Of a stretch of 64,000 nt of DNA, positions 1-64,000 are shown piece after piece. The notes below the pieces were generated by a model that did not search any database, was not told where the DNA came from, and saw nothing but the letters and a program-made list of their open reading frames with translations. The first letter of the stretch is position 1. Each line of letters begins with the position of its first letter. A program made the translations under genes and the position numbers. This stretch comes from a virus (Duplodnaviria > Heunggongvirae > Uroviricota > Caudoviricetes): IMG/VR virus record IMGVR_UViG_2880412407_000011; one strand, 5' to 3'.

Positions 1-19
1 ACCGGCTGGCGAGGTTCTG

Positions 20-1528
20 ATGGCAATTCTTGATGATGTGATTGGCGTTTTTTCACCAGGATGGAAAGCGGCAAGGCTGCGTTCCCGTGCGGTGATCCAG
101 GCTTATGAGGCCGTAAAAACGACGCGGACACACAAAGCCCGACGGGAGAACCGAACTGCCGACCAGTTAAGCCAGTACGGGGCCGTGTCGTTACGTGAGC
201 AGGCCCGTTACCTTGATAACAACCACGATCTGGTCATTGGTGTATTTGACAAGCTGGAAGAACGGGTGGTGGGGAAAAACGGGATTATTGTCGAGCCACA
301 TCCGGTATTACGCAATGGGGCCATTGCCCGTGATCTGGCAGCGGAGATACGCACCCGATGGAGTGAATGGTCTGTCAGTCCGGAAGTCACCGGGCAGTTT
401 ACCCGTCCGATGCTGGAACGTCTGATGCTGCGTACCTGGCTGCGCGATGGTGAGGTGTTTGCCCAGATGGTTTCCGGGCGCATAAACAGCCTGACGCCTT
501 CTGCCGGTGTTCATTTCTGGCTGGAGGCGCTCGAGCCAGACTTTATTCCCATGACCAGTGATGAGAGCAACAGGCTGAATCAGGGCGTGTTTGTTGATGA
601 CTGGGGGCGTCCCGAAAAATATCTGGTGTATAAAAGTCGTCCTGTATCCGGACGGCAGATGGAAACCAAAGAAGTGGATGCAGAGCGAATGCTGCATCTT
701 AAATTTGTTCGCCGTCTGCACCAGATGCGCGGGACGTCTTTGTTGTCCGGTGTGCTGATCCGCCTCAGTGCCCTGAAAGAGTATGAAGATTCTGAGCTGA
801 CTGCAGCAAGGATCGCCGCTGCTCTGGGGATGTACATCCGGAAAGGCGACGGGCAAAGCTATGAATCGGATGGTAATGGCAGCAAGGAGAATGAACGCGA
901 GCTTACCATTCAGCCAGGCATTATTTACGACGATCTGAAACCCGGCGAAGAAATCGGAATGGTGAAGTCGGATCGTCCCAATCCTAACCTTGAAACTTTT
1001 CGTAATGGTCAGTTGCGTGCCGTGGCGGCGGGCAGTCGTCTGAGTTTTTCCAGTACGGCACGCAACTATAACGGCACTTACAGCGCCCAGCGTCAGGAAC
1101 TGGTTGAGTCTACTGATGGCTACCTGATCCTGCAGGACTGGTTTATTGGTGCCGTCACCCGCCCGATGTACCGTGCTTGGCTGAAACAGGCTGTGGCATC
1201 CGGTGTTATCAGGCTACCCCGCGATCTGGACCGATCTTCACTGTATACCGCGGTGTATTCCGGACCGGTGATGCCGTGGATTGACCCTGTTAAGGAGGCT
1301 GAGGCCTGGAAAATTCAGATTCGTGGTGGAGCGGCGACAGAATCAGACTGGGTACGTGCAGGTGGTCGTAATCCAGATGATGTCAAACGTCGGCGCAAGG
1401 CCGAAATTGATGAAAACCGCAAGCTGGATCTGGTATTTGATACCGATCCGGTCAGTGATAAAGGAGGCAGCAGTGCCGCAACGAAACGACAGGAGCCGCA
1501 GCACACCGACGACCAGTCCGAAGAATAA
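20..1528 (+). CDS. phage portal protein (prophage X)
   Basis: 502-aa ORF immediately upstream of the prohead protease/capsid gene; size and position typical of a portal; not lambda B-like. Confidence 0.65.
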   Translation: MAILDDVIGVFSPGWKAARLRSRAVIQAYEAVKTTRTHKARRENRTADQLSQYGAVSLREQARYLDNNHDLVIGVFDKLEERVVGKNGIIVEPHPVLRNGAIARDLAAEIRTRWSEWSVSPEVTGQFTRPMLERLMLRTWLRDGEVFAQMVSGRINSLTPSAGVHFWLEALEPDFIPMTSDESNRLNQGVFVDDWGRPEKYLVYKSRPVSGRQMETKEVDAERMLHLKFVRRLHQMRGTSLLSGVLIRLSALKEYEDSELTAARIAAALGMYIRKGDGQSYESDGNGSKENERELTIQPGIIYDDLKPGEEIGMVKSDRPNPNLETFRNGQLRAVAAGSRLSFSSTARNYNGTYSAQRQELVESTDGYLILQDWFIGAVTRPMYRAWLKQAVASGVIRLPRDLDRSSLYTAVYSGPVMPWIDPVKEAEAWKIQIRGGAATESDWVRAGGRNPDDVKRRRKAEIDENRKLDLVFDTDPVSDKGGSSAATKRQEPQHTDDQSEE

Positions 1529-1541
1529 TTCCTGGTTCAGG

Positions 1542-3203
1542 ATGCAGGCAGGTCACCAGAGTGACGCGGATATTTATATTTATGACGAGATTGGTTTCTG
1601 GGGGGTTACGGCGAAGCAGTTTATCAGTGATCTGAATGCACTGGGCGATATCACCCACATTAATCTCCATATTAATTCACCGGGTGGCGATGTCTTTGAA
1701 GGCATCGCCATTTTTAATGCGCTGAAAACACATGGTGCGTCCATTACCGTTTATGTCGACGGTGTGGCGGCGTCAATGGCGTCGGTCATTGCGATGGTGG
1801 GAAACCCGGTCATTATGCCGGAAAACACTTTCATGATGATTCATAAACCATTTGGCTTTACGGGCGGTGATGCGGAGGACATGCGCACCTATGCCGACCT
1901 GCTCGATAAAGTTGAGGCGGTTCTGTTACCCGCTTATGCACAGAAAACCGGGAAAACCACCGATGAAATTGCTGCCATGCTGGCGGATGAGACCTGGATG
2001 TCCGGTGCCGAATGTCTGGCACATGGATTTGCTGATCAGGTAACGCCAGCCGTTAAGGCAATGGCATGTATTCAGTCAAAACGTACAGAGGAATTTAAAA
2101 AGATGCCGGAATCCATTCGAAACATGATTACTCCGCCACGCAACAGTGCTCCACGCGTACAGGATGATGAACCTGCAGCCTCCCGGACGCCAGTGCAGGC
2201 AGCAGCACCCGTGGTGGATGAAAACAGTATCCGTGCGCAGGTACTGGCAGAGCAAAAAGCGCGTGTAAACGGTATTAATGATCTGTTTGCCATGTTTGGC
2301 AGGCGTTATCAGACGCTGCAGGCTCAGTGTCTTGCCGATCCTGAATGTTCGCTGGAGCAGGCCCGCGAAAAGCTGTTGAACGAGATGGGGCGCGAGTCCA
2401 CGCCATCCAATAAAAATACCCCGGCTCATATTTATGCCGGTAACGGTAATTTTGTGGGGGACGGGATCCGCCAGGCGCTGATGGCGCGTGCCGGATTTGA
2501 AAAAACCGAACGTGATAATGTCTACAACGGGATGACCCTGCGTGAATATGCCCGTATGTCACTGACTGAACGGGGTATTGGGGTTTCCAGTTATAACCCG
2601 ATGCAGATGGTCGGTGCGGCGTTCACACACAGTACGTCTGACTTCGGTAATATTCTGCTGGATGTTGCGAACAAAGCCATTCTGCAGGGCTGGGAAGATG
2701 CTCCTGAAACCTATGAACAGTGGACGCGGAAAGGTCAGTTGTCTGATTTTAAAATTGCCCATCGTGTGGGTATGGGGGGCTTCAGTGCTCTGCGTCAGGT
2801 GCGTGAAGGGGCGGAATATAAATACGTCACCACCGGAGATAAACAGGCCACTATTGCACTGGCGACCTATGGCGAGCTGTTCAGTATCACCCGTCAGGCC
2901 ATTATCAATGATGATCTGAATATGCTGACCGATGTCCCGATGAAGCTGGGCCGTGCGGCGAAATCCACCATTGCCGATCTGGTTTATGCCATTCTGACGT
3001 CTAACCCGAAAATCTCCACAGATAATGTAAGTCTGTTCGATAAAGCGAAACATGCAAACGTACTGGAGAGCGCTGCAATGGACGTGGCATCGCTGGATAA
3101 AGCCCGCCAGTTGATGCGCGTTCAGAAAGAGGGGGAGCGTCATCTGAATATTCGTCCTGCGTTCGTACTGGTACCGACGGCGATGGAGTCTGTTGCTAAC
3201 TAG
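1542..3203 (+). CDS. prohead protease (ClpP/S14-like) - scaffold - major capsid fusion protein, ended by an in-frame TAG
   Basis: ATG at 1542 gives MQAGHQSDADIYIYDEIGFWG... with a ClpP-like motif (INSPGGDVFEG); C-terminal half resembles a Mu gpT/HK97-type major capsid; stop TAG at 3201-3203. Confidence 0.7.
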   Translation: MQAGHQSDADIYIYDEIGFWGVTAKQFISDLNALGDITHINLHINSPGGDVFEGIAIFNALKTHGASITVYVDGVAASMASVIAMVGNPVIMPENTFMMIHKPFGFTGGDAEDMRTYADLLDKVEAVLLPAYAQKTGKTTDEIAAMLADETWMSGAECLAHGFADQVTPAVKAMACIQSKRTEEFKKMPESIRNMITPPRNSAPRVQDDEPAASRTPVQAAAPVVDENSIRAQVLAEQKARVNGINDLFAMFGRRYQTLQAQCLADPECSLEQAREKLLNEMGRESTPSNKNTPAHIYAGNGNFVGDGIRQALMARAGFEKTERDNVYNGMTLREYARMSLTERGIGVSSYNPMQMVGAAFTHSTSDFGNILLDVANKAILQGWEDAPETYEQWTRKGQLSDFKIAHRVGMGGFSALRQVREGAEYKYVTTGDKQATIALATYGELFSITRQAIINDDLNMLTDVPMKLGRAAKSTIADLVYAILTSNPKISTDNVSLFDKAKHANVLESAAMDVASLDKARQLMRVQKEGERHLNIRPAFVLVPTAMESVAN

Positions 3204-62862: not shown

Positions 62863-63188
62863 AAACCTTCCGCTGGAAAGTGAAACCCGGGATGGATGTG
62901 ACATCGGCTCCTTCCGTCAGGGAGGTGCGCTTTGGTGATGGCTATTCCCAGCGTGCGCCTGCCGGGCTGAACGCTGACCTGAAAACGTACAGCGTGACGC
63001 TGTCTGTCTCCCGTGAGGAGGCCACGGCGCTGGAGTCGTTTCTGGCTGAGCACGGGGGCTGGAAGGCCTTTCTGTGGACGCCGCCTTATGGTTACAGGCA
63101 GATAAAGGTGACCTGCGCAAAATGGTCGTCGCAGGTCAGTATGCTGCGTGTTGAGTTCAGCGCAGAGTTTAAGCAGGTGGTGAACTGA
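62859..63188 (+). CDS. M: minor tail protein M
   Basis: 109 aa lambda gpM. Confidence 0.9.
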   Translation: MKTFRWKVKPGMDVTSAPSVREVRFGDGYSQRAPAGLNADLKTYSVTLSVSREEATALESFLAEHGGWKAFLWTPPYGYRQIKVTCAKWSSQVSMLRVEFSAEFKQVVN

Positions 63189-63885
63189 TGCAGGATATTC
63201 ACGAAGAAAGTCTGAACGAGTCGGTTAAATCAGAGCAGTCACCGCGGGTGGTACTCTGGGAAATCGACCTGACGGTACAGGGTGGTGAGCGGTATTTTTT
63301 CTGCAATGAGCTGAATGAAAAAGGGGAGGCGGTTACCTGGCAGGGGCGGCAATATCAGGCATACCCGATTGACGGCAGTGGCTTTGAGATGAACGGGAAG
63401 GGCAGCAGTGCCCGCCCGTCGCTGACGGTGTCGAATCTGTTCGGTCTGGTCACCGGAATGGCGGAGGACCTGCAGAGCCTGGTGGGGCCACGGTGGTCCG
63501 CCGCCGGGTGTATGCCCGTTTTCTGGATGCGGTGAATTTTGTGGCGGGCAATCCGGAAGCGGACCCGGAGCAGGAGCTGAGCGACCGCTGGGTGGTGGAG
63601 CAGATGTCAGAGCTGACGGCCATGACAGCCTCGTTTGTGCTGGCAACACCGACGGAGACGGACGGAGCGCTGTTTCCCGGTCGCATCATGCTGGCGAACA
63701 CCTGTATGTGGGATTACCGGGGAGATGAATGCGGGTATAACGGTCCTGCGGTGGCGGATGAGTTCGATAAACCCACCACCGATATCCGTAAGGACAGATG
63801 CAGCAAGTGCATGCGCGGGTGTGAGATGCGCGGCATGGTGGCTAATTTTGGCGGTTTCCTTTCCATTAACAAACTTTCGCAGTAA
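63188..63885 (+). pseudogene. L: minor tail protein L, frameshifted
   Basis: Two fragments (63188-63535, 63493-63885); frame lost at a G-run near 63484-63487. Confidence 0.8.
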
Positions 63886-63890
63886 ATCCA

Positions 63891-64000
63891 ATGACACAGA
63901 CAGAATCAGCGATTCTGGCGCATGCCCGGCGGTGTGTGCCTGCGGAGTCGTGCGGCTTCGTGGTGAGAACGCCGGAGGGGGAGCGGTATATCCCTTGTGT
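63891..64000 (+). CDS. K: tail tip assembly protein K (5' partial, runs off window)
   Basis: MTQTESAILAHARRCVPAESCGFVVRTPEGERY... lambda gpK N-terminus. Confidence 0.8.
   Translation, partial: MTQTESAILAHARRCVPAESCGFVVRTPEGERYIPC

Follow-up and report, generated by a model that had tools for sequence, protein, structure and literature searches.

Probable tandem lambdoid prophages with divergent homologous tail modules at the ydfJ locus of Escherichia coli O121:H19

The 64,000-nt stretch of DNA analyzed here (the window) contains two lambda-type tail gene clusters, which raises the question of how the two are related and whether they can recombine with each other. Our preferred reading, to which we assign a probability of roughly 0.88, is that two lambdoid prophages, X and Y, lie in tandem at ydfJ, that their tails are homologous and divergent, that the repeat partner of Y is a third prophage at dusA, and that the frameshifts in Y are likely errors. 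What the window displays is ordinary mosaicism, and its biology is already known and published.

Two prophages at ydfJ

Positions 1-20000 of the window were 100% identical to eight genomes of the O121:H19 type, and the window is probably a piece of the chromosome of E. coli O121:H19 (STEC) at the ydfJ locus. X and Y appear to be two lambdoid prophages placed in tandem in the same orientation. X, located at ydfJ, would be related to Qin, the cryptic prophage of K-12, and of full length, and Y would be a lambda-like prophage that presumably integrated into the right-hand attachment site of X. Strain EC43 carries an X-type prophage alone and intact, ending in tfaQ-pinQ-ydfK-ynfT-'ydfJ; it matched the window up to 23,093, and the right end of Y rejoined EC43 164 bp earlier. 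The X/Y junction holds the left copy of a 164-bp repeat that borders Y, and O157 matched to the start of Y at window position 22,943.

Of the eight complete O121 genomes listed, seven have the late region of X, the early region of Y and the late region of Y side by side; the remaining one, 2014C-4423, has next to dusA a sequence that shares 97.9-99.3% identity with the late region of Y. Tandem prophages at four sites of O121:H19 are described in passages of Nishida et al. 2021 (Microb Genom, PMC8767318).

Head and tail modules of X and Y

The tail genes of X span 4190-15533 (Z to J), and those of Y start with Z at 57670 and continue to the window end. The two sets are collinear, and both agree in order and orientation with lambda (NC_001416), Y over the part from Z to the start of K that lies in the window (Table 1). 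The first-pass annotation had reported two full lambda-type tail clusters; both exist where it placed them, although Y continues past base 64,000, where its I and J and the greater part of its K lie. All ten X and all ten Y tail proteins, the latter taken from a sister genome, matched the corresponding lambda families above the gathering score with E values from 1e-8 to 1e-99 (Minor_tail_Z, Phage_tail_U, Phage_TTP_12, Phage_TAC_2, Phage_tail_T, TMP_2/Tape_meas_lam_C, Phage_min_tail, Phage_tail_L, JAB + NlpC/P60 and Lambda_tail_I). The proteins are related and non-identical, as had been proposed: amino acid identity between X and Y was 52% for Z, 54% for U, 57% for V, 33% for G, 27% for T, 22% for H, 52% for M, 77% for L and 85% for K. 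X Z, U and V shared 52-57% identity with both Y and lambda, and X H shared 22% with Y H and with lambda H.

The reading frames of X from Z to tfa are all open. Lambda-type sets produce G and G-T through a programmed -1 frameshift at a slippery heptamer late in G. In the G/T pair of X the -1 frame contains no stop from 6344 on, and a non-canonical G GAA AAG (6356-6362), the only slippery-like motif in the permitted stretch (6344-6365) ahead of the G stop, is a candidate slip site. In Y, a motif scan and comparison with lambda placed A AAA AAG at 59811, which corresponds in position to the lambda slip site G GGA AAG (lambda 10109).

Table 1. Positions of prophage genes, junction and insertion sequences in the window
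Feature	Position	Strand	Evidence or remark
X portal protein	20..1528	+	Pfam Phage_portal_2, E 6e-82; RefSeq annotation of identical sequence
X ClpP-like prohead protease/major capsid fusion, pseudogene	1473..3500	+	Pfam CLP_protease + Phage_capsid_4; RefSeq name
X cement protein	3587-3910	+	Pfam Phage_cement_2
X Gifsy-2-type head-tail connector	3903-4178	+	Pfam Gifsy-2
X Z	4190-4768	+	Pfam Minor_tail_Z
X U	4765-5166	+	Pfam Phage_tail_U
X V	5178-5921	+	Pfam Phage_TTP_12 + Big_2
X tail assembly chaperone G	5982-6368	+	Pfam Phage_TAC_2
X tail assembly chaperone T	6377-6706	+	Pfam Phage_tail_T; -1 frame relative to G
X tape measure protein H, 1021 aa	6678..9743	+	Pfam TMP_2, TMP_4, Tape_meas_lam_C
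X M	9743-10072	+	Pfam Phage_min_tail
X L	10082-10780	+	Pfam Phage_tail_L
X K	10786-11529	+	Pfam Prok-JAB + NLPC_P60
X I	11427-12074	+	Pfam Lambda_tail_I
X tip attachment protein J	12135..15533	+	Pfam J domains including Ig_GpJ_C at residues 1008-1132
X lom	15600-16199	+	Pfam Ail_Lom; 96% aa identical to Y lom
X side tail fibre stf	16264-19218	+	Pfam phage_tail_N + Phage_fiber_2 + Collar
X tfa	19218-19739	+	Pfam Caudo_TAP
IS600 copy 1, at end of X tfa	19732..20996	+	100% inverted repeat with 27232-26003 and 24692-24655; RefSeq annotation
X/Y junction	22930..23093	.	left copy of ~164-bp imperfect direct repeat flanking Y, ending TGAATTATGGATTTC
Y integrase	23128-24423	-	Pfam Arm-DNA-bind_2 + Phage_integrase; RefSeq annotation
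Y excisionase	24443-24706	-	RefSeq annotation
IS600 copy 2 (27232-26003 + 24692-24655)	24655..27232	-	self-BLAST
IS3-family element, 1,310 bp, interrupts IS600 copy 2	24693-26002		ALIL pseudoknot 25551-25667
Y lambda-type head module	49707..57658	+	cos end aligns to lambda base 1
Y Nu1	49894-50439	+	Pfam Nu1 (Phage_Nu1)
Y A	50414-52339	+	Pfam GpA
Y W	52336-52542	+	
Y B, 4 deletions	52539-54136	+	Pfam portal (Phage_portal_2)
Y C, 3 deletions	54117-55433	+	Pfam S49 protease (Peptidase_S49)
Y D	55443-55775	+	Pfam HDPD
Y E	55831-56856	+	Pfam Phage_cap_E
Y FI	56898-57293	+	
Y FII	57305-57658	+	
Y Z	57670-58248	+	Pfam; 98% aa identical to lambda
Y U, one 1-nt deletion at 58332	58245-58639	+	Pfam; 92% aa identical to lambda
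Y V	58647-59399	+	Pfam
Y G	59413-59835	+	Pfam
Y T	59862-60275	+	Pfam; -1 frame
Y tape measure gene H, fragmented	60256..62862	+	1-nt deletions: 60542, 60976, 61311, 61379, 61558, 62428
Y M	62859-63188	+	Pfam on sister-genome copies
Y L, one deletion at 63483	63188-63885	+	Pfam on sister-genome copies
Y K, start only	63891 onward, cut by window end	+	Pfam on sister-genome copies

The head genes of X start with a portal of the lambda family that shares 21% amino acid identity with lambda B. One gene fuses a ClpP-like protease at the N terminus to a capsid domain at the C terminus, and cement and Gifsy-2-type connector genes come after it; this is the gene content of the ClpP-protease/capsid fusion head module of Qin/Gifsy-2-type lambdoid prophages. 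This module had been labeled HK97/Mu-T-like; a protease-capsid module is indeed present, but the X head proteins matched no HK97-type capsid or protease family in Pfam (S78 protease and PF05065), the capsid part belonged to Phage_capsid_4 (PF25209), and the Mu-like_gpT match was marginal (E 9e-5). The single internal stop in the translation of the fusion gene is a CAG-to-TAG amber codon at 3201-3203, where the intact 675-aa EC43 orthologue has CAG. The terminase gene of X, which lies outside the window on its upstream side and close to it, is split by an element of ~10 kb, and X is probably defective in the O121 lineage through these two lesions. For Y, the lambda head module reported at first pass was borne out by Nu1, A, B, the S49 protease, D and E, which are collinear with lambda, highly identical to it and of matching families; the Y portal is 98.9% identical to the lambda portal at the amino acid level.

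Modular mosaicism of X and Y was likewise supported, with breakpoints mapped from identity profiles and informative sites. Lambda is Y-like over cos-M and X-like over L-J. Between Z and early U, Y shared ~97-99% identity with lambda (93.4% nt over lambda 1-9790), and X shared ~93-99.7% with it between the start of L (window ~10,100) and codon ~985 of J (window ~15,090). The breakpoint lies at ~10,100, X and lambda sharing 93-96% nt from ~10,150, and informative sites in X J switch from lambda-like to Y-like at 15,030-15,092; lambda-like in its body, this protein carries from 15,092 on a C-terminal receptor-binding domain that resembles Y and not lambda. Because lambda matches Y from cos to M but X from L to J, past exchange of modules between the lineages appears to have taken place at gene boundaries. 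The tail sets of X and Y are probably homologous modules from a common lambdoid gene pool rather than recent copies of each other.

X and Y were 94-100% identical only from 15,092 to ~16,575 (J receptor-binding domain, lom and stf-N), the Y copy lying outside the window. Direct gene conversion between the tandem neighbors in the O121 lineage might account for this cassette, an explanation that we consider doubtful. It would fit a perfect match of 521 nt (15108-15628, J-C/lom) within ~1.5 kb of 94-100% identity whose flanks are only 40-80% identical, and X is closer to Y in this tract than to its EC43 orthologue: across 15,159-15,543, X and Y were 100% identical and X and EC43 98-99.5%. However, the X-type prophage of EC43 carries the same cassette at 95-99.5% identity without a Y neighbor, the dusA prophage carries it at 94-100% identity, and the donor could equally have been the dusA prophage. 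Since the cassette also occurs in the EC43 and dusA prophages, it is widely shared, and an event between X and Y is unnecessary. The 521-nt tract could still reflect a real short conversion between them; in that case X and Y would recombine with each other, through a cassette that is not part of the tail core.

Within the window, single bases are missing from homopolymers in five genes of Y: eight such deletions interrupt U, H (six of the eight) and L, and seven break B and C. Compared with strain 2002-3211, positions 44001-64000 contained 0 substitutions and 19 single-base deletions, every one in a homopolymer run; the deletions span 45,385-63,483, and none falls in 1-44,000. Y U, H (870 aa) and L are intact in three sister genomes, and therefore the window is probably in error: the frameshifts most probably stem from homopolymer errors of long reads that were left uncorrected in a repeated region. 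It is improbable that they are real and that Y is a decaying, non-functional prophage in the source strain. The frameshifts do stand in the sequence as given, and lambdoid prophages of EHEC are commonly defective with frameshifts (PMC2669165), but there are 19 deletions against no substitutions, all of them within sequence of which the genome carries another copy at 96-100% identity, and the three sister genomes have intact genes, all of which argues against it.

Recombination substrates

The shared tail modules had been proposed as extensive substrate for inter-prophage recombination, to be refuted by nucleotide identity below 70%; for the pair in the window, our comparison does not support this proposal. 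Identity was 24-68% overall from 4190 to 10,000 (Z-U-V 52-68%, M 56-62%), where G, T and H were not alignable, with noise-level identity, and only L-K (10,130-10,895) exceeded 70%, at 72-88% (78% over 768 nt). A BLAST comparison of X and Y in the window gave only two HSPs, 67% over 1.1 kb and 78% over 768 nt, and only four identical tracts reached at least 25 nt (32, 29, 28 and 25 nt). The minimal processing segment was reportedly put at roughly 25-30 nt by Shen and Huang in 1986, with efficiency said to drop steeply with divergence. The in-window tail pair lacks the high identity throughout and the long perfect tracts expected of an efficient RecA-dependent substrate, and the two modules would be too diverged for efficient RecA-type recombination together.

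Exchange between X and Y via their tails is unlikely rather than impossible, because L-K at 72-88% lies in the working range of phage Rad52-type recombinases; phage recombinases tolerate ~22% divergence (PMC2327257; PMC3945230), lambda Red recombining genes that are 22% diverged (PMC2327257). The early region of Y encodes an 820-aa 'exonuclease' with an ExoVIII N-terminal domain and an Rv2179c-like exoribonuclease domain. That the collinear and equally oriented modules are extensive homologous recombination substrates, which as direct repeats would be expected to give 53-kb deletions or hybrid prophages, is highly improbable: L-K does reach 88% over 300 nt, with identical tracts of 25-29 nt, but to the low identity and few tracts elsewhere are added an early region of Y in which no RecT/Bet/Erf-type recombinase is annotated, the adjacency of X and Y regions in seven of the eight O121 genomes, and rearrangements that, in passages of Nishida et al., are ydfJ-dusA and ydfJ-ttcA (PMC8767318).

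Judging from the sequence, the strong candidate substrates are the IS600 inverted pair, the J-C/lom/stf-N cassette with its partner outside the window, and the repeat between Y and the dusA prophage. The dusA prophage, 2.4 Mb away in the same genome, shares a perfect repeat of 17,150 bp with Y, and its proteins from Nu1 to I have accessions identical to those of Y. The recombination-prone repeat would be the Y head-tail block, duplicated perfectly over 17 kb in the dusA prophage. Inversions joining the ydfJ and dusA prophages of O121:H19 appear in passages of Nishida et al. 2021 (PMC8767318), whose findings the 17-kb repeat fits. The two IS600 copies form an inverted pair inside the window that is perfect over 1,230 nt. 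The IS3-family insertion in the second copy occurs in none of the complete RefSeq O121 genomes; it matches an IS3-family copy in L007 at 99.9% identity.

Comparison with known phages and prophages

Lambda (NC_001416, 1-22,500), X and Y have the identical gene order Z-U-V-G-T-H-M-L-K-I-J-lom-stf-tfa; however, neither prophage is lambda-like throughout. X matched lambda 12,965-18,461 at 90.5% (L 93% and J 90.5% aa) and differs in the head and Z-H, whereas Y differs in G, T, H and L-J; in both, the J receptor-binding domain and lom are unlike those of lambda (~50% nt).

With K-12 Qin and EC43 (NZ_CP196712), X shares ydfU, ydfT, cspB/F/I, essQ, rrrQ, gnsB, stf, tfaQ, pinQ, ydfK, ynfT and 'ydfJ. 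To our knowledge, K-12 Qin lacks the whole head-tail region. X is 98% identical from portal to tfa to the EC43 prophage, the full-length form of Qin, but in O121 it has the capsid amber codon, IS600 in tfa, the split terminase gene and Y at its right end. Compared with the complete RefSeq genomes, the window has an extra IS3-family insertion and 19 homopolymer deletions, neither of which was found there.

The ydfJ prophages of STEC O121:H19 lineage L1 (Nishida et al. 2021, PMC8767318) come from the same organism and the same locus as the window; the passages of that paper drawn on here contain no gene-level comparison of the two ydfJ prophages. O157 Sakai carries 11 mutually similar lambdoid prophages with lambda-type or 'slightly different' head regions (Asadulghani et al. 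2009, PMC2669165). Like the window, Sp3-Sp15 of this O157:H7 strain represent multiple co-resident, similar and mostly defective lambdoid prophages (PMC2669165). Recombination between Sp5 and Sp15 was shown experimentally where they are highly homologous (PMC2669165). Sakai is of another serotype, and recombination there proceeded via highly homologous flanks, whereas the tails of X and Y are only 52-88% identical.

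Genomic setting and gene content of the tandem prophages

Window 1-20000 was 100% identical to eight complete E. coli O121:H19-type chromosomes (e.g., NZ_CP022407.1 from position 935858); window 19001-44000 matched complete O121 genomes at 100% except for one extra insertion, and window 44001-64000 matched them at 99.9%. The RefSeq annotation of the reference placed the locus at rspB-ydfJ, in the order rspA, truncated rspB, X (a Qin-type lambdoid prophage), Y (a lambda-like prophage), truncated ydfJ, and ydfI. The two prophages are tandem neighbours with both late operons on the + strand. 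Of the eight complete O121 genomes compared, seven have the X late, Y early, and Y late regions side by side.

All ten tail proteins of X and all ten of Y scored above the Pfam gathering threshold for the families of their lambda counterparts; the likeness of the two sets to lambda is not due to chance, and the two lambda-type tail sets proposed in the first-pass annotation are real.

Tail genes of X and Y, with the amino acid identity between the two prophages
Gene	X	Y	Strand	X-Y identity (aa)	Remark
Z	4190-4768	57670-58248	+	52%	
U	4765-5166	58245-58639	+	54%	
V	5178-5921	58647-59399	+	57%	
G	5982-6368	59413-59835	+	33%	
T	6377-6706	59862-60275	+	27%	
H	6678-9743	60256-62862	+	22%	
M	9743-10072	62859-63188	+	52%	
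L	10082-10780	63188-63885	+	77%	
K	10786-11529	from 63891	+	85%	Y gene cut by window end
I	11427-12074		+		
J	12135-15533		+		followed in X by lom, stf, tfa

The head genes of Y comprised Nu1, A, W, B, the S49 protease gene C, D, E, FI, and FII. Those of X encoded a lambda-family portal, a single CLP_protease and Phage_capsid_4 fusion, a cement protein, and a Gifsy-2-type connector. The assignment of a lambda head to Y and a protease-capsid head to X therefore stood. However, the X head matched no HK97 family in the Pfam search and its Mu gpT match was marginal, so that the label 'HK97-like' is unsupported by the sequence.

Divergence and mosaicism of the tail regions

At the DNA level, only four BLAST HSPs were found between X and Y in the window: 67.1% over 1,097 nt in Z-U-V, 75% over 72 nt, 71.7% over 120 nt where H ends, immediately ahead of M, and 78.4% over 768 nt in L-K. 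Global pairwise nucleotide identities were set aside because gappy alignment inflates those of diverged genes; we used the HSPs together with 300-nt windows along a three-way MAFFT alignment of X, Y, and lambda (NC_001416). In these windows the X-Y identity was 52-68% in Z-V, at noise level (24-50%) in G/T and most of H, 56-62% in M, and 72-88% in L-K, and the longest exact X-Y tracts inside the window were 32, 29, 28, 25, and 23 nt. Most of the pair thus lies below 70% nucleotide identity, the limit that the first-pass annotation itself had set, with only approximately 0.8 kb of L-K above it, and the proposal of an extensive X-Y recombination substrate does not hold for this pair; homology of tail clusters at the protein level need not mean usable DNA substrate for recombination. 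Since phage Rad52-type recombinases recombine DNA of approximately 22% divergence (PMC2327257; PMC3945230), X-Y exchange at L-K is possible, though unlikely.

The modular mosaicism was borne out by comparison with lambda. Y was 93.4% identical to lambda 1-9790, in an alignment beginning at window 49707, the counterpart of the lambda cos end. In sliding windows the identity was 97-99% through Z and early U, fell to 33-80% in V-G-T-H, and rose again to 85-97% in the last part of H and in M. X was 90.5% identical to lambda 12,965-18,461, with 93-99.7% from L to J in sliding windows. Informative sites switched from 'Y = lambda' to 'X = lambda' at approximately window 10,100, the M/L gene boundary, and from 'X = lambda' to 'X = Y' at 15,030-15,092, approximately codon 985 of J and shortly before the Ig_GpJ_C receptor-binding domain (residues 1008-1132); the X-Y block stopped near 16,575, within stf. 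These profiles and switch sites indicate that the structural arm of lambda resembles a composite whose head and proximal tail are Y-type and whose distal tail is X-type. Together, X, Y, and lambda illustrate clearly how modules are exchanged at the M/L and J receptor-binding-domain boundaries.

The only cassette that X and Y have in common comprises the J receptor-binding domain, lom, and the N-terminal part of stf. It contains a 521-nt perfect X-Y tract (15108-15628), its lom products are 96% identical, and the Y copy lies approximately 4.5 kb past the window end. E. coli strain EC43, which lacks Y, carries this cassette at 95-99.5% identity in its X-type prophage, and the dusA prophage, a third prophage of the O121 genome, carries it at 94-100%. 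Its presence in both indicates that the cassette circulates widely and is no proof of X-Y exchange, and we rejected direct exchange between X and Y as the necessary source of the identity.

Lesions of X and structure of Y

The EC43 X-type prophage stands alone, with its 2.1-kb terminase gene and capsid fusion both intact, and its right end reads tfaQ, pinQ, ydfK, ynfT, 'ydfJ. An intact solo prophage ending at 'ydfJ identifies X as a Qin-family prophage of full length. Relative to EC43, the O121 X has acquired four changes: a capsid amber codon, IS600, an insertion in the terminase gene, and Y at its right end. The amber codon (CAG in the EC43 orthologue, TAG at 3201-3203) lies in the protease/capsid fusion gene, inside the part of the window (1-20000) that complete O121 genomes match at 100%. 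The terminase large-subunit gene is split by an element of approximately 10 kb (NZ_CP022407.1, approximately 924,526-934,550) that lies immediately 5' of the window. Owing to the capsid amber and the split terminase gene, the head functions of X are dead; the tail operon from Z to tfa, approximately 15 kb, is open throughout.

On the 10-kb element, genes for a tyrosine integrase, HTH regulator, BRO-N protein, Icd-like protein, D5-type primase-helicase, and SSB accompany an intact ClpP-protease/capsid fusion of the element's own, 629 aa long and with 51% identity to the X type. The element looks like a satellite residing in the terminase gene of X as its likely helper. A bolder reading, in which X is maintained for the tails it can donate and not as a phage, and forms a helper-satellite composite with the element, seems to us very improbable. 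Under it, the satellite would provide the capsid and borrow the portal and tails of X, and excision of the element would repair the terminase gene.

IS600 occupies 19732-20996 (+) within X tfa, and a 100% identical inverted copy lies at 26003-27232 (-) beside Y xis, so that the two copies bracket the right end of X and int/xis of Y. Self-comparison of the window revealed no other repeat above 82% identity, and the inverted IS600 pair is the best in-window substrate for inversion. Nested in the second copy (24655-27232), 38 bp from the IS600 end, is a 1,310-bp IS3-family element (24693-26002) that carries an ALIL frameshift pseudoknot and that we take to resemble IS629, given its size and ORF layout. 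This insertion is missing from every complete RefSeq O121 genome and is therefore specific to the source strain. Following stf/tfa of X (16264-19739), we found a Pin-type serine invertase gene (Resolvase + HTH_7; 21158-21745, -) and, beyond IS600, a leftover tfa fragment near 20995-21060; the two may represent a tail-fibre inversion switch of the Qin/e14 kind disrupted by IS600. The Rfam family 'IS009' also matched above the gathering score at 19561-19759 (+), overlapping the 3' end of X tfa.

The window followed EC43 to 23,093 and then entered the Y integrase gene, and at the far end of Y the EC43 sequence resumed 164 bp earlier, so that an imperfect direct repeat of approximately 164 bp, ending in TGAATTATGGATTTC, borders Y on both sides. 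Consistent with this boundary, the 99.5% identical Y-type early region of O157:H7 genomes begins at window 22,943. A phage recombinase in Y that drives homeologous exchange was considered and rejected: no RecT, Bet, or Erf gene is annotated in the Y early region, nor a RecT-type partner beside the 820-aa 'exonuclease' (27347-29809, -), which pairs an ExoVIII N-terminal domain with an Rv2179c-like 3'-5' exoribonuclease domain at the C terminus. IS600 removed no recombinase gene, since IS-less O157 relatives have no extra DNA at that site.

Rfam matches above the gathering score identified the DicF sRNA (30450-30501, -) adjoining dicB in the Y early region, the sok antitoxin RNA (37735-37909, +) beside a hok gene, and STnc100 (43225-43397, +). 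Downstream of the Y late regulator are two phage-borne tRNA genes, one (42203-42278) called tRNA-Met (CAT) by ARAGORN and tRNA-Ile by RefSeq, the other (42379-42455) tRNA-Arg (TCT).

In the ORF list of the window, the Y genes for the portal B, the protease C, U, the tape measure protein H, and L were fragmented. Against the sister strain 2002-3211, window 44001-64000 showed no substitutions and 19 single-base deletions, all of which shortened homopolymer runs. Sixteen fell in genes (four in B, three in C, six in H, and one each in U, L, and the antirepressor gene, the last at 47789 in its 3' end). All 19 lay at 45,385-63,483, nearly the same interval as that with a 96-100% identical copy at dusA, and the first 44 kb were error-free relative to sister genomes. 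A homopolymer-only pattern where short reads lack unique placement indicates that the deletions are probably uncorrected long-read errors, that is, an assembly artefact. Clustered frameshifts in a prophage may mark an unpolished repeat instead of gene decay.

Recombination partners and comparison with known O121 and EHEC prophages

The dusA prophage lies 2.4 Mb away in the same genome in the opposite orientation (NZ_CP022407.1 3329627-3379340, reverse complement), and its protein accessions are identical to those of Y from Nu1 through I. The two share a perfect tract of 17,150 bp, from approximately window 48,830 to past 64,000 (from ahead of Nu1 to where J begins), and the DNA on its two sides is 96% and 94-99% identical; the sharp edges of the perfect tract suggest recent homogenisation. 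The Z-M segment of X had six further megablast-level matches on the same chromosome and was present at a coverage of at least 80% in 1,824 of 5,426 complete E. coli genomes; Y-type late regions occur in approximately 475 genomes. Given the 17-kb dusA copy of the Y block and these six matches, X and Y are far from the closest lambdoid pair in this genome, and the relevant repeat for recombination is a different prophage 2.4 Mb away, not the X-Y tail pair. In strain 2014C-4423, a dusA-adjacent locus was 97.9-99.3% identical to the Y late region; we dropped it as proof that Y moved by inversion because it is either an inversion product or the strain's own dusA prophage.

It is textbook knowledge that EHEC/STEC genomes carry multiple lambdoid prophages, tandem and mosaic, with tails of the lambda type. 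The tandem X/Y arrangement with two tail sets is already known EHEC/STEC biology (PMC2669165; PMC8767318), and it carries little weight as a discovery, the rspB-ydfJ locus itself having been described. In Nishida et al. (PMC8767318), tandem prophages are reported at four sites, together with ydfJ-dusA inversions in O121:H19, which the perfect repeat between Y and the dusA prophage fits.
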